Origin: a virus | Taxonomy: Duplodnaviria > Heunggongvirae > Uroviricota > Caudoviricetes | Virus record (IMG/VR): IMGVR_UViG_2579779007_000005 | DNA: 12,909 nucleotides | Reading direction: 5' to 3' (one strand) | In this document: one piece after another, positions 822-8,350 of the stretch | Position numbering within the stretch: the first letter of the stretch is position 1 | How the letters are laid out: the number at the start of each line of letters is the position of its first letter | The notes under the pieces: generated by a model | The model's database searches: none | Seen by the model: only the letters and a program-made list of their open reading frames with translations | What the model was told of the DNA's origin: nothing | Position numbers and translations under genes: made by a program

Positions 822-1130
822 CTAGTACTCAGGAAGATTTTCTAAATTATCCTTAGATGTACCATTGGCTCTAGTTGTAATGTAATCAATGTTGTTAACA
901 CGGTCTTTAACCACTTTTTGACCCTTCTTCCACTTACCGTCATCACCTATGAAAATGGTGTAAAACGTATAACCACTATCGATCTTATTCACTACCCACT
1001 GCCGTGTTTCTGATACCCCTCCCCCAACAGTATCCCCCTTATCAACATGCACATACACATGGGTAATGTGAGTGTGCTTGTCGTTATATCGGACTTTAGA
1101 AATAAGGTAATCAGCCCATTTATCAATCAT
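822..1130 (-). CDS. AT-rich cargo gene of unknown function (about 102 aa from ATG 1130; the ORF extends to a TTG at 1184, giving 120 aa)
   Basis: ORF immediately downstream of terL, with visibly lower GC than the packaging genes. The ATG at 1130 has a GGTGG SD-like sequence; the TTG at 1184 has AGGAAG at about 9 nt. Stop TAG 824-822 is followed by a terminator. No recognisable domain. Confidence 0.45.
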   Translation of the reverse strand: MIDKWADYLISKVRYNDKHTHITHVYVHVDKGDTVGGGVSETRQWVVNKIDSGYTFYTIFIGDDGKWKKGQKVVKDRVNNIDYITTRANGTSKDNLENLPEY

Positions 1131-1279
1131 ATTCCACCATAAGTTTGAACAGGAAAAGTCCTGCAATACTCTTATAAACAACAAAACAGCGGCTTCCTAC
1201 CCCACGATGGTAATATAGTGATCTAGAGCAATTTATATTTCCGATAACATCGATATAACCCCACATTTACACTCTATTC

Positions 1280-2941
1280 TCAAATCCCATTAAATAAAGC
1301 CAACCGTTCTTTGTGGCTATCGCTCATATCGAATGCAAATTCCTCATGCTCTGCCTGGAATGTGCCAAACGCCATCAGCGCCGCAACGCTCGGGTCTATC
1401 TTGTTGGATGATTTTTTCTTGTTCGGCTTGATATTGGCGTTCGCGTCACTCTGCATCACAACATTACTCATTGACCAAGCCATCACCGGATCACCACGAT
1501 GTACAATCACCTTCCGGTTAACAAAAACTTCGAACGATTTCGCCGCCGGACTGAAACGAAGGTATGTTTGCGGGAACGGCTCCACCTCAAATCCTGCACC
1601 CTGTAGCTGCGTCCTCAAGTGCGTGGCGTTCCATGTATCGAAGCCCACCAGCCTGATATTGAAATTCTCTGCATCCACCATGATGTCATCACGGATACGG
1701 TCATAATCAATGCAGTCACCCGGTGTTGTGCGTATCCAGCCCGCCTTTACCCACTGGCGATAGATGGCGCGGTTTTTATTGGCGGGGTTCTGTAGCTGAA
1801 ATTCTGGTAGATAGTGACGGGAAACCAGCATAATCTTTTTACCGACCGGGAAGGCATAGCACACGCTGGAAATATCGCTGGTTGATGATAAGTCCAGCCC
1901 CGCGTAGCACTCCTGCCCGTATAAATCCGCCTCCGCGAACGTTCCGGCGCACTCCGCCCATGCACCGTTACCCATCCACGGCGTAGCCCCCTGACACCAG
2001 ATATTGAATCGCTTGGTGAGCATTTCCACCCACTGCGACGGAATACCCCGCGCTTTCTGGATGGTTGAGGCCAGTTTTTCACGATCTACGGAAACATCGA
2101 TATTGGGATTCGCCTTTATCCACATCGCCGGATCGTCAACCTCGCTTTCATCATCCAGCTCATAAATCAGAACGAACATGGATTCGTTCACCTCTTCACC
2201 ATCCAGTATCTGGCAGCAATAGTCGTAGTGTTGTTTACAGGCTGAAACAACGTTGCTCCCCGATGTGGTGATGGCAAATAACAGCCCCTCTGGGCGTGCC
2301 CCCATTCCCAGTTCAAGCGCGGAATAAACACCGTTGTCAGGGTGCAGGTGATATTCATCCACAATGGCAAGGCTCGGGTTTGTACCTTCAATGGTTGCCG
2401 CTTTTGCTGCCAGCGGCTTTAACAGGCTGTTGGTTTTCGGGTGTATCACCTTGTGTGCCTGAATATTTACCCGCTTTCGTAACGGTCGGGATAAAAGGCA
2501 CATCTGACGCGCATCATCAAACACGATCCGCGCCTGATCACGACTCACGGCGGCGGTGTAAATATCCTGCTGCCCGTTTTCCATAACCAGAAACCAGTTA
2601 GCCAGGATAGCGGCGACCGTGGATTTGGCATTTTTTCGCGGTACTTCAATGAATGCGCTGGTGTATTTGCGCCGTCCGGTGGCCTTAACCTTAAAGCCCA
2701 GGATGCACGCAAAGGCGAACTGCTGCCACGGCTCCAGCTCAATGGGGCTACCACGCATTGCGCCTTTTACGTGCGGACACACCCTGGAAAAGGCAATAAA
2801 CCGCTCAACGACCTCCGGATCGAACGTGTAAAGGGGGTTTTCAAGGTCAGAAAAATACCGTTTAACGGCCTGTTTCAGTCGTTTACAGGCCGTAATTTTG
2901 CCGTTTTTTACGCCTTCTGCGTACTCATGCCAGGCGGTCAA
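1280..2941 (-). CDS. terL: Terminase large subunit, HK97-like (553 aa), apparently TTG-initiated
   Basis: Conserved N-terminal region WHEYAEGVKNGKITACKRL, Walker-like VPRKNAKST, and a C-terminal nuclease-like region. The most upstream in-frame start is TTG 2941-2939, preceded by GAGGA SD at a 5-nt spacer. There is no in-frame ATG/GTG before residue 63. It overlaps terS by 17 nt. Confidence 0.9.
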   Translation of the reverse strand: MTAWHEYAEGVKNGKITACKRLKQAVKRYFSDLENPLYTFDPEVVERFIAFSRVCPHVKGAMRGSPIELEPWQQFAFACILGFKVKATGRRKYTSAFIEVPRKNAKSTVAAILANWFLVMENGQQDIYTAAVSRDQARIVFDDARQMCLLSRPLRKRVNIQAHKVIHPKTNSLLKPLAAKAATIEGTNPSLAIVDEYHLHPDNGVYSALELGMGARPEGLLFAITTSGSNVVSACKQHYDYCCQILDGEEVNESMFVLIYELDDESEVDDPAMWIKANPNIDVSVDREKLASTIQKARGIPSQWVEMLTKRFNIWCQGATPWMGNGAWAECAGTFAEADLYGQECYAGLDLSSTSDISSVCYAFPVGKKIMLVSRHYLPEFQLQNPANKNRAIYRQWVKAGWIRTTPGDCIDYDRIRDDIMVDAENFNIRLVGFDTWNATHLRTQLQGAGFEVEPFPQTYLRFSPAAKSFEVFVNRKVIVHRGDPVMAWSMSNVVMQSDANANIKPNKKKSSNKIDPSVAALMAFGTFQAEHEEFAFDMSDSHKERLALFNGI

Positions 2942-3569: not shown

Positions 3570-4010
3570 TCAGTCATCATCACCATACATCCAGTCGTTA
3601 CGGTGTGCCGCCCGTTCTTCCTGCTCGCGATACATGCCCGCTTTACGGTTTGCTTTCGTGGCTGGATCTTCCCATGTCGTCTTACGGTTGTGGCACGTCT
3701 GGCACAATGCCTGGTGATTCCACTCAGGCCAGAAGAGAACATCACCGCCGCCATTGATGGGAATGATGTGATCCACCACAAGAGCTGGTGTATAAATACC
3801 CTTAGCCAGACAACGCACGCATAACGGGTTTTTGCTCAGGTACAGGGCGCGGTATTTGTCCCACTGTCGGGAATACCCACGTGCGCGGCGGTGTCCCCGT
3901 CTGGCATCCTCTGCACGCCATGCAGCCCGCCTGTGCTCTTCACACTTGCCGGACTTCACGCGCTTATTACAGCCCGGCTCAGTGCATCGCCTTAATGGTT
4001 GCCACGGCAT
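3570..4010 (-). CDS. HNH endonuclease, terminase-associated (146 aa)
   Basis: HNH/zinc-finger motifs: CVRCL...DHIIP...N...H...CQTCHNRK and N-terminal CTEPGC...C. It lies directly upstream of terS-terL, as in HK97-like cos packaging modules. Confidence 0.85.
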   Translation of the reverse strand: MPWQPLRRCTEPGCNKRVKSGKCEEHRRAAWRAEDARRGHRRARGYSRQWDKYRALYLSKNPLCVRCLAKGIYTPALVVDHIIPINGGGDVLFWPEWNHQALCQTCHNRKTTWEDPATKANRKAGMYREQEERAAHRNDWMYGDDD

Positions 4011-4312
4011 CAGTACACCCCCACATCACGATAAACCGACCAGAGCGCAGAAATAGCCATAGGCAGTTCCGAGTGCTCAACTGGTGAAACCGCTTCCCGG
4101 TTCTCGTACAGAAAAGCGATGTACATCAGGCAACCAACACGTATTGCCGGGGTAAATTCCAGGCCGTCTTCAAAACGTTTCCCGATATGCTTCTGGCAGG
4201 CTTCCAGCGCCGCATCGGTATATATTTGCAGAAGTTCAACCTCACCATAAAAATCATCATCAAGGCGAAGATGGGCCATTACTTCATTAAGCGTAATTCT
4301 GGATTCACTCAT
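4010..4312 (-). CDS. gp6-like head-tail connector/adaptor protein (100 aa)
   Basis: ATG 4312-4310 (MSESRITLNEVMAHLRLDDD...) overlaps the portal stop by 8 nt; its TGA overlaps the HNH ATG (TGATG). Size and position match phage gp6-like connectors. Confidence 0.65.
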   Translation of the reverse strand: MSESRITLNEVMAHLRLDDDFYGEVELLQIYTDAALEACQKHIGKRFEDGLEFTPAIRVGCLMYIAFLYENREAVSPVEHSELPMAISALWSVYRDVGVY

Positions 4313-5519
4313 CTTTTTCACCTTTAATTTCCACAGTCTGCTTCCATGCCTGGCTGAACTCGTCACCCCCTTCACGCGGCGGCATACCCTCACGCTCACG
4401 GGCTTCGTTCGGATTCATGATCCCGTTCTTAATCCCTTTCTCATACGTGGCATAACGTTCGGTGGGTGTGGCGCGTAATAAATCGGCTGAATCAAACTCA
4501 ACCAGATAACGGGTACCAGGTACGGGAGAAGCCACCAGCAAAGCGGCCTTGATTTGCTGTTCGAAGTTCGCCAGCCATGGGCGCATTGTCATGGTCAGAA
4601 ACGCGCGGCTTGCCTCGCTGAAATTGCTGTAGGTGCTGTTGCTGTATTCCTGCAGAAAAATAGGCGATACGTTGAACATGCGGGCGATGTCTTCAATGGA
4701 GAAGCGACGGGAGGCCAGCCATTCCGCATCCTGGTTACTCATTCCCAGTTGCTTGTAATCCATGCCCCCTTCAAGGATTGGCGTTTTTCCGGCATTTTTC
4801 GCCCCCTTGTAGCGTTCCAGAGCATCTAATGCCTGTTTACCTTTCACGCCGTCCAGCCATTCGCCTGACGTGATAATCCCTGCCGCCATCATGCCATCTT
4901 TCATAATGCTGGCTCCGTGGCGCTGTTGAGCAAGGCCAAGCCCAAGTGCCTCACGGCAAATCGTGACGGGGGAGCGCCCCAGAAAGCCATCATCCGAGGC
5001 ATAGCGGAGATGCAGAACTTCTTCCTGTAAATACGTGCGCACCGTTCCTGTATAGGGTTCGGTGATGGTATATCGGTATTTGTGTGCGCCTGTGCGTTCC
5101 GGTACAACACACCCCGGCGCATAAGGATGAAGTGATTTTGGCTGCCCGTCCCGCCCCCACTCAATAACCGCATAGGCGTTACCGTTCAGCAGGCAGTGAC
5201 GCATCATTGTGCGTTTAAACTGGTAAGGTGTCTGGCATGAATTAGGCTGCTCATTCAGCAGAATATCTACCGGGTGACTGTCCAGCCATTCCCGCGCCTC
5301 TCTGCCCTTGTCATTACGTACCAGATACAGATAACACGGCATCGTGGCCACCGCCTCAGCGATGACAGAAACCGCGTTCATCACTGCAGGCAATGATTCA
5401 GCCGTCCCGGCAGAAACATATTCTCCGGATCCGGTATTCGGTACGCCGGACAGCGCCAGAAAATCATCAATGGACAGGTTACGCTGCTCGCTTTTTTTAC
5501 GACTAAAAGGCCACCACAT
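4305..5519 (-). CDS. HK97-family portal protein (404 aa)
   Basis: ATG 5519-5517 is tightly coupled to the protease stop; the TTG at 5609 listed in the track is rejected. Size and position fit a portal. The stop overlaps the connector ATG. Confidence 0.8.
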   Translation of the reverse strand: MWWPFSRKKSEQRNLSIDDFLALSGVPNTGSGEYVSAGTAESLPAVMNAVSVIAEAVATMPCYLYLVRNDKGREAREWLDSHPVDILLNEQPNSCQTPYQFKRTMMRHCLLNGNAYAVIEWGRDGQPKSLHPYAPGCVVPERTGAHKYRYTITEPYTGTVRTYLQEEVLHLRYASDDGFLGRSPVTICREALGLGLAQQRHGASIMKDGMMAAGIITSGEWLDGVKGKQALDALERYKGAKNAGKTPILEGGMDYKQLGMSNQDAEWLASRRFSIEDIARMFNVSPIFLQEYSNSTYSNFSEASRAFLTMTMRPWLANFEQQIKAALLVASPVPGTRYLVEFDSADLLRATPTERYATYEKGIKNGIMNPNEAREREGMPPREGGDEFSQAWKQTVEIKGEKDE

Positions 5520-5520
5520 A

Positions 5521-6081
5521 TCACAACCCCGCCAGGTCAGCCCAGCGATGACGATTATTTCCTGCCGGGCGTAATTCAGGGTGCAGTGCAAACAACGAAC
5601 GGTGGGCAATCTCCACGCCGGATTCGGGATAAGCAGGCATTGACGTTATCGTGATTTCACGGAGTTCTGCAGCGGTAACAGTGCGCAGATACGGTTTTTG
5701 CGCGATATTCCACTCCTCGCATAATGCGCGAAAGCCAAAGCTCATTCCTGTAATGTCGCCACGCTCCACCAGCGTAAGCACATCTTTTCCAAGCTGGGTA
5801 TTTGGCGGTGTCAGTTCAAAACGTAACCCGGTGTTATCCTCAGTCAATACCAGAGTGCCGGATTTGGTGCGCCCCAGCAGTTGGGTATAGTCATGCTCAT
5901 ACAGGCAGCGCACATCATTACCCGCCACCAGATAGTCAGCAAAAGCCCCCGGCGTGAACTGTTCGCGGAATTCGTCCCAGATAATTTCTGAAAGGCTGTT
6001 CCAGCGAACGGCATATCCCACCAGCTTTTTATTGCTGGCGGTCAGTTCAGATGTGCGGATTTCAAAATCGGTGTTTTTCAT
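5521..6081 (-). CDS. HK97-family prohead maturation protease (186 aa)
   Basis: ATG 6081-6079 with AGGGGA SD. The N-terminal pattern ...KLVGYAVRWNSLSEI... resembles HK97 gp4-type proteases. It sits between the capsid and portal genes; its stop (5523-5521) is 1 nt from the portal ATG. Confidence 0.8.
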   Translation of the reverse strand: MKNTDFEIRTSELTASNKKLVGYAVRWNSLSEIIWDEFREQFTPGAFADYLVAGNDVRCLYEHDYTQLLGRTKSGTLVLTEDNTGLRFELTPPNTQLGKDVLTLVERGDITGMSFGFRALCEEWNIAQKPYLRTVTAAELREITITSMPAYPESGVEIAHRSLFALHPELRPAGNNRHRWADLAGL

Positions 6082-6129: not shown

Positions 6130-7275
6130 TTACTCACCAGCCTGAATTTCCAGAATCTTGATGGCGTTCGAATCCACCACACCACCGCCCAGATATTTCT
6201 GGGTATAGATGTTAATGAATCCGGGTTCGCTGAAGTCCGGACGGGTACGCGTACCGGTTTCATGGTCAACGATGAAATAACCGCGCTTAAAGTCACCTAC
6301 TGCAATCACACCGTCCGGAATAAATTCCAGATATTCAACCGGAAGCCCCAGCAGAGAATCAGGATCACCAGCCTGTAAACGATCGCGCCAGATGTAATCA
6401 CCAGTGGCATTTTTCAGTTTTTGTGCGGAGGCGGCTGTATTTGAGTTCATCACCCATACAGCTTTTTTGCGGTACTTATTGCGCAGCGTAAATTTCAGGT
6501 CAATCAGCATGTCGGCGCTGAGACTGCCAGTAACTTTTTTCGTCTGGAGCGTACCGAAAGGACGGGTTTTGTCGTTATCCGCAGTGCGCGGGAACGCCAG
6601 GAAACCTTTAGCTTTTTTCTCGCCATCACCGGAAACCAGATCCGTTTCTTCGGTATCAACGAAAGTGTCGCCAATTTCAGAAGATAACCAGCTCATAATA
6701 TCGACTTCGGAAAAATCGATAATTTCCTGAGTGGTTTTCGGGTAAGCGTAGATCGGATACAGGCGGATGCTGACTTCGTTCAGTTTCGGCGTTGCCGTCT
6801 GGTTACGTGCCGCACCTTCCTCGCCATGCTCAACCACCGCGCCACCAGCGGAAACCAGTTGCTTAAATTCATTGCTGTGAATGGTTTTAACAGTACAGAT
6901 TTTACGCATCACCGATTCATCAGAAAGCTGACGCATAATTTCTCTGTTCAGTTCCGGGATAACCGTATAACCACCATCAGCCGGGACACTGCCGGACAGG
7001 TTGCGGGTTTCCCCGGTCAGAATGTAAGAGCGCAGTTCGTCTTTGGTGATTTTCTCTTCGACGGAAACACCTGGCTGGTTACGTTCTTCATCCGCAACAG
7101 CTTCAAGACGGGAGATTTCTGTGTCGAGGGAATCGGCTTTTGCACGCAGTTCATCAAACTGTTTGCCCTCGTCATCGTTCAGGCTGCGGTTTTCACTGTC
7201 GGCTTTTTCCAGCAGGGAGCGCATCTGGTTTTTCAGGGCGTTTTTTTGCTGGCGGAGTTCGATTAATTTCTTCAT
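6130..7275 (-). CDS. HK97-fold major capsid protein with an N-terminal coiled-coil delta (scaffold) domain; 381 aa
   Basis: The N-terminus MKKLIELRQQKNALKNQMRSLLEKA...ISRLEAVADEERN is a typical helical delta domain, followed by an HK97-like body. ATG at 7275 is chosen over the in-frame TTG 7362 and ATG 7350 on homology-type grounds; the start is uncertain. Stop TAA 6132-6130. Confidence 0.85.
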   Translation of the reverse strand: MKKLIELRQQKNALKNQMRSLLEKADSENRSLNDDEGKQFDELRAKADSLDTEISRLEAVADEERNQPGVSVEEKITKDELRSYILTGETRNLSGSVPADGGYTVIPELNREIMRQLSDESVMRKICTVKTIHSNEFKQLVSAGGAVVEHGEEGAARNQTATPKLNEVSIRLYPIYAYPKTTQEIIDFSEVDIMSWLSSEIGDTFVDTEETDLVSGDGEKKAKGFLAFPRTADNDKTRPFGTLQTKKVTGSLSADMLIDLKFTLRNKYRKKAVWVMNSNTAASAQKLKNATGDYIWRDRLQAGDPDSLLGLPVEYLEFIPDGVIAVGDFKRGYFIVDHETGTRTRPDFSEPGFINIYTQKYLGGGVVDSNAIKILEIQAGE

Positions 7276-7465
7276 GAAGGTTTTCTCGTATTGGTTAAGA
7301 TTCAGGACGTGAAACCAACACGGAGGGAGCGCGCCCGACACTCCCGGCATCTCGCAGATCAACCCAGCATCGCGCAGGGGTCAGGCGGCATTGTGGCGGC
7401 TCACGTCTGAGTGCCACGCTCCAACATATACATAAAAATCAGTATGTAAACACCTGTCAGTCAGA

Positions 7466-7493
7466 CCGAACAACCACGAAAGAACACGAACAA
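7466..7493. promoter_or_regulatory. Three 10-bp-phased direct repeats (CCGAACAA / CACGAAAG / CACGAACAA) between the divergent capsid and cargo promoters
   Basis: CGAACAA at 7467-7473, CGAAAGA at 7477-7483 and CGAACAA at 7487-7493, spaced one helical turn apart. The same ACGAACAA motif recurs in tandem at 201-218. Confidence 0.35.
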
Positions 7494-7497
7494 ATAA

Positions 7498-7528
7498 TTT
7501 ACAAAAGAAGTAAACCATGGCCTATTAT
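7498..7528 (+). promoter_or_regulatory. Candidate sigma70 promoter of the 168-aa cargo gene
   Basis: -35 TTTACA (7498-7503), 19-bp spacer, -10 TATTAT (7523-7528). The spacer is long, so this is tentative. Confidence 0.3.
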
Positions 7529-7559
7529 TGCTGTCTCTGACTACAACAAAGGACGCATC

Positions 7560-8066
7560 ATGAATTTAAGCGCAATGGCATACCCTGATACTTTCATAAT
7601 TAATGGCGAATCATTCAGAGGTAAAAGAAACGCAAAAGAAAACAAGGTATTAATTCCATATACAAATGAACCGGAAGTAACTATTGGTCAACACATTATC
7701 CAGCGTGTCGGTAAAAACGAGATAAATCTAAAAATTATAGATATGAAGTTGCTTCCCAATGGAACCCTCAGACAGGGAACCAACCATCCAAATATGTTGA
7801 CTCTCTATATTGAAAATATCACGGGAAATGAACATATGACGCCAACTAAAAGTAATACATTTAACATTGGTTCAATTAGTGGTGATCAAGTGCAGATAGG
7901 TGAGCATAACCATATGCTGGTAAACATCAGCATCACTGAACTGGTTGAAAAAGTCGCTAAATCGGGGGATGTACAAGCCAAATCAGTATTAAAGCAGTTA
8001 CTGGAAAACAGTACCGTTGCCAGCATTGTTGGGGCTGGCGCAAGTGCCCTAATAGGCTTACTGTAA
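7560..8066 (+). CDS. AT-rich cargo gene of unknown function (168 aa) with a C-terminal hydrophobic Gly/Ala-rich tail; candidate accessory or defence-type effector
   Basis: ATG 7560 with AAGGA SD at a 6-nt spacer. It is the only substantial plus-strand gene in the island and is visibly more AT-rich than its neighbours. The C-terminus STVASIVGAGASALIGLL looks like a glycine-zipper membrane segment. It is bounded by its own promoter region and a terminator. Confidence 0.7.
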   Translation: MNLSAMAYPDTFIINGESFRGKRNAKENKVLIPYTNEPEVTIGQHIIQRVGKNEINLKIIDMKLLPNGTLRQGTNHPNMLTLYIENITGNEHMTPTKSNTFNIGSISGDQVQIGEHNHMLVNISITELVEKVAKSGDVQAKSVLKQLLENSTVASIVGAGASALIGLL

Positions 8067-8072
8067 AAAAAT

Positions 8073-8093
8073 GGCCTGGATTTTACCAGGCCT
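8073..8093. terminator. Bidirectional rho-independent terminator between the convergent 82-aa gene and the 168-aa cargo gene
   Basis: Stem GGCCTGG (8073-8079), loop ATTTTAC, stem CCAGGCC (8087-8093), flanked by AAAAAAA upstream and TTTATTATTTT downstream on the plus strand. Confidence 0.55.
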
Positions 8094-8101
8094 TTATTAT
8101 T

Positions 8102-8350
8102 TTACCGTTTCACGGGATCGCGCATTCTGCGCCTTATTTTCCACAGATATTCGATCATTGCTTCCACCTGCTCACGGTTGGTTGCGAAAATTTCCCCGGT
8201 CAGTGAGCTACGCAGAAAATCATGATGATCCACAAAAAACAACGCATCGGAAGAAAGCAGACGGCGATATTTTTTTGCTGTCATGGTTTCCAGATCATCA
8301 AAATCATGAAACTTTTTATGTTGCTGGACTTCTTCAAATGTCACTGGCAT
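8102..8350 (-). CDS. Hypothetical protein (82 aa)
   Basis: ATG 8350-8348 preceded by a G-rich SD (minus strand CAGGGGGGGG); stop at 8102, followed by a hairpin terminator at 8073-8093. Confidence 0.5.
   Translation of the reverse strand: MPVTFEEVQQHKKFHDFDDLETMTAKKYRRLLSSDALFFVDHHDFLRSSLTGEIFATNREQVEAMIEYLWKIRRRMRDPVKR

Follow-up and report, generated by a model that had tools for sequence, protein, structure and literature searches.

The stretch of viral DNA analyzed here, referred to as the window, comprises the 12,909 nucleotides of IMG/VR record IMGVR_UViG_2579779007_000005 and represents most of an Escherichia coli capsid-forming phage-inducible chromosomal island (cfPICI). It raises the question of what is contributed to such an island by a single AT-rich gene (positions 7560-8066), read from the plus strand and encoding a protein of 168 amino acids (aa), which is annotated in the RefSeq entry of E. 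coli SMS-3-5 as hypothetical protein WP_001053662. We found that segment 7507-8099, which carries this gene, is a single-gene accessory cassette located in a cfPICI defence hotspot. The predicted protein combines a putative sensor domain, a segment resembling the RIP homotypic interaction motif (RHIM) and a hydrophobic C-terminal helix. On these grounds we propose, with a probability of roughly 40%, that it would work on its own as an amyloid-switch abortive-infection protein, akin in principle to Bab/Agp and HET-S but of a new architecture. A defence role is plausible, and the gene is a strong candidate for a suicide defence system against phages that consists of one gene.

A conserved gene in an exchangeable cassette

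The presence of a real, conserved gene at 7560-8066 (plus strand) was confirmed by 115 full-length homologs, 165-171 aa long and 47-92% identical. Its strand, its length of 168 aa and its C-terminus, which reads ...STVASIVGAGASALIGLL, are as described in an earlier note made from the sequence alone, and so is its placement, with the capsid gene on one side and an 82-aa gene, SSB and a primase on the other. The same note called it the only substantial plus-strand gene, which is essentially right: the other plus-strand genes of the window are YlcI/YnfO-like open reading frames (ORFs) of ~59-100 aa, found near 12.1-12.6 kb. The gene is also AT-rich in comparison with its surroundings, having a G+C content of 38.3% (36% at third codon positions) vs values of 49% in the capsid gene, 52% in the genes downstream and 50.6% across the remainder of the island. 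A bidirectional terminator located behind it was called on both strands (folding energy of -17.1 kcal/mol, z = -4.4 vs shuffled sequences). A promoter region of its own, which had likewise been claimed, was not recovered. A consensus scan identified no plus-strand sigma-70-like promoter upstream of the gene; the sole promoter-like match found there (7450..7423, minus strand) faces the capsid operon, and the intergenic region 7276-7506 is mostly common to islands lacking the gene.

The limits of the cassette were determined by alignment with islands in which the site is either empty or occupied by alternative cargo. The conserved flanks stop at ~7506 and restart at ~8100, thus enclosing a ribosome-binding site, the ORF and a terminator. 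Among 5,426 complete E. coli genomes, the flanks are common to 156 and the full segment is present in only 51. Islands B1172 and OkiPb01701 share the same backbone and have an empty site; the RefSeq protein accessions of their terminase small subunit, HNH and connector proteins are the same as those of SMS-3-5. Island KFu019 carries, at identical junctions, an unrelated 157-aa plus-strand gene (locus L104, 1871-2344) followed by nearly the same terminator hairpin. The existence of empty and alternative-cargo alleles on one backbone, with sharp junctions at ~7507 and ~8099, upholds the view of the earlier note that this is a later-acquired accessory cassette.

The empty sites contain just a short hairpin, CCCGGA-AAAA-TCCGGG, at the place where the cassette sits (loci L102, ~1810-1850, and L103), and near-identical terminators are found at window positions 8064-8099 and at ~2345-2380 of the KFu019 locus L104. 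The shared terminators and the hairpins of the empty sites suggest that cargo may be exchanged by recombination between the conserved left flank and the shared terminator.

Gene content of the capsid-proximal slot

The content of this slot was surveyed in cfPICIs of other species. The survey was anchored on the capsid protein, with one genome per species, and the best 80 cfPICI loci were taken, 68 of which extend 2.6 kb or more beyond the capsid gene on its upstream side. A homolog of the cargo gene was identified in eight of the 80 species-level loci, always immediately upstream of the capsid gene and divergent from it. One of these copies, in the Photorhabdus temperata cfPICI (L064, 5109-5724), is frameshifted, being broken into two ORFs, and is probably a pseudogene. 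Exact-sequence look-ups placed homologs at this very position in cfPICIs of Klebsiella, Serratia and other enterobacteria, while none is present in EDL933-type islands or in the sister islands with the same backbone. A core gene would be found in essentially all related islands, a distribution that the earlier note had named as an argument against a cargo role; with eight of 80 loci the gene does not show it, and its cargo status stands.

Related islands carry different genes at this position. Besides the unrelated 157-aa gene of KFu019, known defence systems were identified: in the Xenorhabdus lircayensis cfPICI the slot (L035, 3662-5559) is occupied by a DRT system composed of a UG17 reverse transcriptase and a SLATT protein (E 5e-161 and 2e-57, respectively), and in a Citrobacter freundii metagenome-assembled genome (L085, 3085-4642) by the A and B pair of PDC-M18. 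The capsid-proximal slot is therefore a cfPICI defence hotspot, of which no description was found in the literature searched. Elsewhere it holds several recurrent one- and two-gene cassettes without Pfam or PADLOC matches, which are candidates for further cargo systems. Among these cassettes are a 228-aa gene (L036, L043, L056, L072, L076 and L088), joined by a 143-aa gene in four of these loci, a 257-aa transmembrane protein (L089 and L095), a 159-aa gene (L091) and the 157-aa gene of KFu019. In the Erwinia typographi cfPICI (L078, 4616-5682), the slot content looks by eye like an Hcp-type protein with a GH19 or lysozyme-like protein behind it.

Not all homologs belong to satellites. One lies at the end of a P2-like prophage of Pseudomonas and neighbours a HEPN protein; others were found in Xanthomonas, beside a DUF2971 protein, in Shewanella chromosomal islands, and in the moron site between the Rz and terminase genes of a lambdoid phage. 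The genes upstream of these homologs (HEPN in Pseudomonas, DUF2971 in Xanthomonas, and those of Shewanella) were considered as motif-bearing partners, but they lack the motif described below and are hence mere neighbours.

Domain architecture of the protein family

An AlphaFold2 model built from 86 homologs (mean pLDDT of 80.8) predicts an N-terminal six-stranded beta-barrel, which we propose to be a specificity or sensor domain, followed by a coil at residues ~92-124 with the lowest confidence in the model (pLDDT 57-61) and by helices at residues 125-135, 138-149 and 151-167, the last of which is a hydrophobic Gly/Ala tail. The hydrophobicity of the final 17 residues is the maximum of the protein (mean Kyte-Doolittle value of 1.91; 1.48 over a 19-residue window), and the small-xxx-small spacing G158/S162/G166 is present. 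The earlier note had described an amphipathic helix and a membrane-inserting Gly/Ala segment at this end. Of this, the conserved hydrophobic C-terminal helix stands; a membrane-spanning helix is plausible but borderline, given the 19-residue mean.

Conservation and model confidence run in opposite directions. Mean column entropy is highest in the N-terminal domain (1.36 bits), lower at residues 100-125 (1.07 bits) and lowest in the C-terminal tail (0.79 bits), which is the most conserved part. A hidden Markov model scan of 1.84 billion representative proteins yielded 266 matching clusters. Many of them match only positions ~90-168, behind unrelated N-terminal domains that include a zinc ribbon, and two members with a swapped N-terminus occupy the same cfPICI slot. 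These partial matches show that the family follows a modular plan: a variable N-terminal domain, a conserved RHIM-like motif, two helices and a hydrophobic tail.

Two-gene variants were distinguished in the cfPICIs of Klebsiella, Enterobacter soli and Winslowiella, where a ~250-aa paralog with a different N-terminal domain is encoded upstream. It contains a degenerate copy of the motif, e.g. YAQFGTNN, lacks the tail in two of the three cases, and may regulate the protein encoded downstream or act as its co-sensor. The N-terminal domain of these upstream paralogs (L013, 7230-7997; L081, 5015-5779; L079, 5001-5738) is common to the free-standing full-module proteins P0171 and P0210. Caution is advisable with the short "mini" members listed for this family in public collections. 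A second homolog search, with the C-terminal module as a query, returned mostly fragments, and P0264, a 79-aa database member, results from a mis-called start of a 173-aa ORF (L107, 114-635).

The RHIM-like segment

At default thresholds, scans of the whole protein against Pfam, NCBIfam and PADLOC gave no matches, and PHROGs returned only phrog_5789, a family of unknown function. The earlier note, which recognized no motif in the protein, missed a RHIM-like core within residues 100-125, detected by Pfam RHIM (E 0.014) and by the retrieval of RHIM chains. In this segment N, Q, G, I and V are abundant and charged residues scarce (4.6% vs 19.5% overall); although the model leaves it unstructured, its conservation exceeds that of the N-terminal domain. 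The pattern of the RHIM core, (I/V)-Q-(I/V)-G with an N placed 2-3 residues further on, is present as V111-Q-I-G114-E-H-N117.

When a permissive threshold was applied, RHIM (PF12721) was the sole Pfam match of the window protein (residues 110-119). It was also the family matched by most homologs (18 of 86, best E 0.003), those seen individually being below the cut-off. Some homologs additionally gave matches to L1R_F9L, over the motif region and below the cut-off when seen individually, and to EAD10 (best E 0.015); both were rejected as non-informative.

A superfamily motif profile (A5), constructed from 88 non-redundant copies of a 28-residue segment around the core, was searched against 177,635 distinct PDB sequences. 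Only six matches were obtained at E <= 10 and all are RHIM chains: two RIPK1 sequences (E 1.8e-4 and 2e-4), M45 (0.066) and three RIPK3 sequences (0.077-0.12). A control profile, in which the flanking columns were permuted and the seven-residue core was kept, gave no PDB matches, so the similarity to RHIM reaches beyond the core. The resemblance is carried mainly by distant members of the family, with the core S-Q-G-I-Q-I-G-D-x-N, one of which bears the NCBI name "RIP homotypic interaction motif-containing protein". At the level of sequence the motif is thus very probably RHIM-like, a resemblance that may reflect either common descent or convergence.

Comparison with known amyloid-signalling systems

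The anatomy of the protein fits the logic of amyloid-controlled cell-death effectors. In HET-S and Bab/Agp, a signal turns a short motif into a cross-beta form, and this switches on a small helical domain, the hydrophobic terminal helix of which attacks the membrane. On this basis we propose the following mechanism. A phage product would cluster the N-terminal domains, and the RHIM-like segments would then stack into a cross-beta assembly. The C-terminal helices would thereby be gathered and the Gly/Ala tails would enter the membrane, killing the cell and aborting the infection. In this mechanism, the assembly into amyloid, the insertion into the membrane, the triggering signal and the effect on phages are all inferred. 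In a more specific version, which we consider doubtful, the protein would be a single-polypeptide RHIM-type amyloid switch of Enterobacteria, spread by satellites and temperate phages; its swappable sensor, here a neck/stopper-like barrel, would be clustered by an assembling phage structure.

The closest counterpart in the same species is Bab/Agp, an amyloid-signalling abortive-infection system of E. coli whose effector has a small helical domain, a terminal helix of which is hydrophobic (10.1101/2024.11.07.622273). Both are found in E. coli at a mobile-element or defence-island locus. In both, a conserved N/G-rich segment of ~20-25 residues, predicted to be unstructured, adjoins a small helical domain in which the terminal helix is hydrophobic and small residues abound in it, and the proposed logic, in which assembly of the motif activates a membrane-acting killer, would be the same. 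Bab is a protein of 109 aa with an N-terminal hydrophobic helix and a C-terminal motif, whereas this order is reversed in the window protein. The matching motif of the Bab system is carried by a separate 1094-aa sensor, Agp (TPR, GreA/B-C and PIN domains), while the window protein has a sensor-like domain in the same chain and no partner. Finally, the Bab motif belongs to BASS11 and that of the window protein is RHIM-like, the two having been compared by description and not by sequence.

RHIM-like bacterial motifs have been described as BASS3; they were reported chiefly from multicellular bacteria, C-terminal in Bell domains and N-terminal in NB-ARC/NACHT proteins (10.1101/2020.01.06.895854). 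The window family shares with the BASS3/Bell-NLR systems a RHIM-related core (G-phi-Q-phi-G) on a putative membrane-targeting helical domain and, in its two-gene variants, adjacent genes with a common motif. It differs in its hosts, which are unicellular Gammaproteobacteria, their phages and satellites instead of Actinobacteria and Cyanobacteria, in the lack of an NLR partner, in the mid-chain position of the motif and in the two-residue insertion of the close members (G-x-Q-V-Q-phi-G).

The resemblance to the RHIMs of RIPK1, RIPK3 and M45/vIRA lies in the core phi-Q-phi-G-x-x-N-x-(M/L/Q), with ...SSGIQIGNHNYM in RIPK1 and ...SGDQVQIGEHNHM in the window protein; it is limited to ~16-22 residues, and no kinase or other domain is held in common. 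HET-S and HELLP offer a further parallel: according to summaries in the literature, they link an amyloid motif to a helical domain whose terminal helix is hydrophobic, rich in small residues and thought to insert into membranes. In those proteins, however, the transmembrane helix of the HeLo domain is N-terminal, with the motif at the C-terminus, and the trigger is an NLR or a prion and not a domain of the same chain.

BASS pairs are distinguished by the same motif on adjacent genes, C-terminal in the effector and N-terminal in an NLR, STAND or TGP sensor. The window cassette consists of a single gene with an internal motif, and the island contains no NLR, STAND or TPR gene. The hydrophobic helix, which in Bell and HeLo-like domains is N-terminal, lines the pore and is sheathed by a small helical bundle, is C-terminal here, and no HeLo, Hell or Bell model was matched in Pfam. 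Because of the position of the motif, the missing partner and the sub-threshold Pfam RHIM score, we assigned the protein to neither group, although we consider it most likely to work like the BASS pairs or RHIM proteins. The amyloid-signalling literature searched described neither this architecture nor these hosts, and neither accession WP_001053662 nor the PHROG was mentioned in the literature searched.

The Tai proteins resemble the cargo gene in another respect: they are encoded by single genes of unknown fold, located in the mid-island accessory region of phage-inducible chromosomal islands and in phage moron sites upstream of packaging genes (PMC11364771). TaiEcA (phi80 Orf63) differs in being 204 aa long and in having neither a RHIM-like motif nor a hydrophobic tail. 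Membership in this group was rejected, since hhalign against TaiEcA gave a probability of 0.1; phi80 was not matched in a tblastn search of 50,697 phage records with the window protein.

Alternative explanations

Several observations weigh against the proposed amyloid switch. The polarity of its domains is the reverse of that in every characterized amyloid-controlled effector, and the window encodes neither an NLR nor any other motif-bearing partner. The tail, of only ~17 residues (19-residue mean of 1.48), may simply be a buried helix. The Pfam RHIM score, 15.4 bits, falls short of the 20-bit gathering threshold, the close-family core G-x-Q-V-Q-phi-G is two residues longer than the canonical G-phi-Q-phi-G, and a close-family profile (A8), aligned by a hidden Markov model without the pattern, retrieves no PDB chain; the resemblance to RHIM is therefore short and dependent on how the profile is constructed. 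The best PDB match of the full-length profile is CsrA (1vpz), at a weak E of 0.054 and partly through a His-tag, and in view of it the motif might be an ordinary beta-hairpin oligomerization element. None of the 5027 defence-protein models of PADLOC-DB v2.0.0 matched the protein at E <= 0.1. The CsrA match, which is probably noise, spans residues ~69-139 (window 7764-7976), i.e. the motif and the first helix, and is the sole alternative structural template for this region.

Among the other explanations, it is unlikely, but less so than for the rest, that the gene is a membrane-anchored moron without an amyloid switch. Its product would be a tail-anchored inner-membrane protein, produced while the island is integrated, that blocks superinfection at the stage of DNA entry or alters the envelope, and the middle segment would be a beta-hairpin for oligomerization or a linker. 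Transcription from the opposite strand with its own terminator, as in lysogenic-conversion genes, would suit such a role, and so would the conserved hydrophobic C-terminal helix, the moron positions occupied in the lambdoid phage and the P2-like prophage, the failure of the close-family profile to retrieve a RHIM chain and the weak CsrA-like beta-strand match over the same segment. This explanation does not account for the fact that the least structured segment, with its invariant Q-x-G-x-x-N, is more conserved than the N-terminal domain, nor does it explain why the superfamily profile retrieves RHIM chains and nothing else while its permutation control stays clean. Moreover, the protein has no signal peptide or periplasmic domain, and a bulk facing the cytoplasm would be unusual for an injection blocker. 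A lysis accessory, such as a modulator of holin or antiholin carried with the late genes, is extremely improbable. The homolog in vB_EcoM-689R6 stands immediately behind the holin, lysin and Rz genes, oriented like the late genes, and a single hydrophobic helix would be in keeping with such a function; but the satellite copy is transcribed against the late operon of an island that has no lysis genes, the stretch just behind Rz classically harbours morons, and no similarity to holin families was detected in Pfam or PHROGs.

Two further alternatives assign the protein a partner within the helper phage or the host. It is quite improbable that the protein is a neck-protein mimic serving the satellite, in which a stopper-like barrel would cap or sequester helper heads or connectors, or time lysis, so that tails are left for the cfPICI capsids. 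The neck-protein resemblance of the modelled barrel is a lead only: PilZ and split-barrel (flavoprotein) folds score almost as well as the head-closure/stopper type, and Foldseek searches of BFVD and PDB gave no significant match. A PilZ-type cyclic di-GMP receptor was rejected, as the RxxxR ... D/NxSxxG motifs are not conserved and Pfam gave no match. No sequence or profile relation to cfPICI head-closure proteins (Phage_HCP; SPP1 gp16-like) was detected: Phage_HCP (PF05521) was not matched in Pfam even at E <= 10, and hhalign against seven cfPICI head-closure proteins gave a probability of 0.1. A simple substitute for the head-closure protein was rejected as well, given this null result, the occurrence of both genes in Klebsiella and Serratia islands, and the absence of a Phage_HCP gene from sisters with the same backbone whether their slot is empty or otherwise filled. 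The backbone without a head-closure gene thus occurs with and without the cargo gene. The cargo gene is also absent from ~90% of cfPICI loci and from the same-backbone sister islands, it is found in non-satellite contexts, and even among cfPICIs the N-terminal domain of its product is exchanged with the C-terminal module left in place. A RHIM-type counter-defence decoy, which like viral M45 and ICP6 would co-assemble with and poison an amyloid-signalling defence of the host, is very improbable. The motif profile does retrieve the viral decoy M45 besides RIPK1 and RIPK3, the literature contains pathogens that disrupt immune signalling through RHIM motifs, and the gene is carried by phages and satellites. 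Against this, no host system with a matching RHIM-like motif was found in these bacteria, all recovered motif-bearing proteins belonging to the family itself; the conserved membrane-type tail and the variable N-terminal domains suit an effector and sensor better, and the slots of the gene otherwise hold defence systems.

Organization of the island

A nearly identical island is located between thiM and rcnR in E. coli SMS-3-5, and EDL933-type cfPICIs have the same layout. On the minus strand, the gene for the terminase large subunit is followed by those for the terminase small subunit, an HNH endonuclease, the head-tail connector, the portal, the prohead protease and the major capsid protein. 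Beyond the cargo gene, the minus strand carries an 82-aa gene, SSB, an 81-aa gene, a D5-type primase, a DUF4222 gene, an Icd-like gene and an AlpA-type regulator. The features of the cassette and its surroundings are summarized in Table 1.

Table 1. Coordinates of the cargo cassette, the domains of its product and the neighbouring features in the window
Feature	Position	Strand	Basis or remark
Exchangeable cargo cassette (ribosome-binding site, ORF, terminator)	7507-8099	+	Aligned with B1172, OkiPb01701 and KFu019; G+C content 38.6%
Shine-Dalgarno-like AAGGA	7549-7553	+	Six bases ahead of ATG, read from sequence
Coding sequence, 168-aa protein, WP_001053662, phrog_5789	7560-8066	+	ATG start; homologs; RefSeq
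Six-stranded beta-barrel, residues 9-91	7584-7832	+	AlphaFold2 model
RHIM-like N/Q/G-rich motif, residues 100-125, TFNIGSISGDQVQIGEHNHMLVNISI	7857-7934	+	Pfam RHIM, motif profile
Core VQIG-EH-N, residues 111-117	7890-7910	+	Q112, G114 and N117 invariant in 86 homologs
Two amphipathic helices, residues ~126-150	7935-8009	+	D137, A140 and N150 invariant; K141 near-invariant
Hydrophobic Gly/Ala-rich helix, residues 151-168, STVASIVGAGASALIGLL	8010-8063	+	Putative tail anchor or pore-lining helix
Bidirectional intrinsic terminator hairpin GGCCTGG-ATTTTA-CCAGGCC	8073-8092	both	A-run on one side, T-run on the other
Conserved intergenic region with capsid-facing promoter-like site	7276-7506	.	Common to islands without the gene
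82-aa conserved gene, phrog_1957, flanking the cassette	8102-8350	-	Occurs in empty-slot islands too, hence outside the cassette
Major capsid protein gene, HK97 fold, opening the packaging operon	6130-7275	-	Pfam Phage_capsid, E 6e-60
Terminase large subunit	1280-2941	-	

The 82-aa neighbour of the cassette gave a sub-threshold Pfam match to Imm15 (E 0.003); it is kept in islands with and without cargo and stands alongside a PerC-family gene in KFu019. Between the head-tail connector and the portal (4010-5609), the island has no head-closure (Phage_HCP) gene, which EDL933-type cfPICIs do have (compare L002, 5992-6330). This gene is also missing from the sister E. coli islands B1172 and KFu019 and from locus L105, which shows that a cfPICI sublineage without a head-closure gene exists.

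A gene for a DUF3892 protein (822-1184, minus strand; Pfam E 2e-9) is located in AT-rich DNA just past the terminase large subunit gene. All inspected E. coli cfPICIs contain an ORF of similar size (~93 aa) at this position, which may be a conserved end-of-island gene. Positions 1-95 of the window match DNA of essentially every E. coli genome, annotated as a riboswitch and located next to thiM in SMS-3-5, and mark the chromosomal edge of the island. An Rfam scan of the window gave no matches at the gathering threshold, perhaps since only a part of the riboswitch element lies inside the window.

Biological significance

Amyloid-controlled cell death is established in animals (RHIM, RIPK1/RIPK3) and in fungi (HET-S, PP motif). 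In bacteria, Bab/Agp (BASS11) is, to our knowledge, the only anti-phage amyloid example characterized experimentally so far, and we know of no function assigned to the RHIM-like BASS3 motifs of Actinobacteria and Cyanobacteria. If the proposed reading is true, the family described here would place this class of motifs in genetically tractable hosts, i.e. E. coli, Klebsiella, Serratia and Pseudomonas, and in their satellites and phages. The necroptosis-type logic of RHIM would then operate in E. coli as a one-gene anti-phage system, with a domain polarity reverse to that of HET-S and Bab, and the protein would offer a minimal combination of sensor, switch and effector for dissecting assembly-triggered membrane attack. 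The locus would also define a previously unmapped defence hotspot of cfPICIs, extending from the capsid promoter to the replication module and already known to carry DRT and PDC-M18 cargo. Should the amyloid reading be wrong, the gene would still represent a widespread, unannotated and modular family of cargo proteins that is worth screening.

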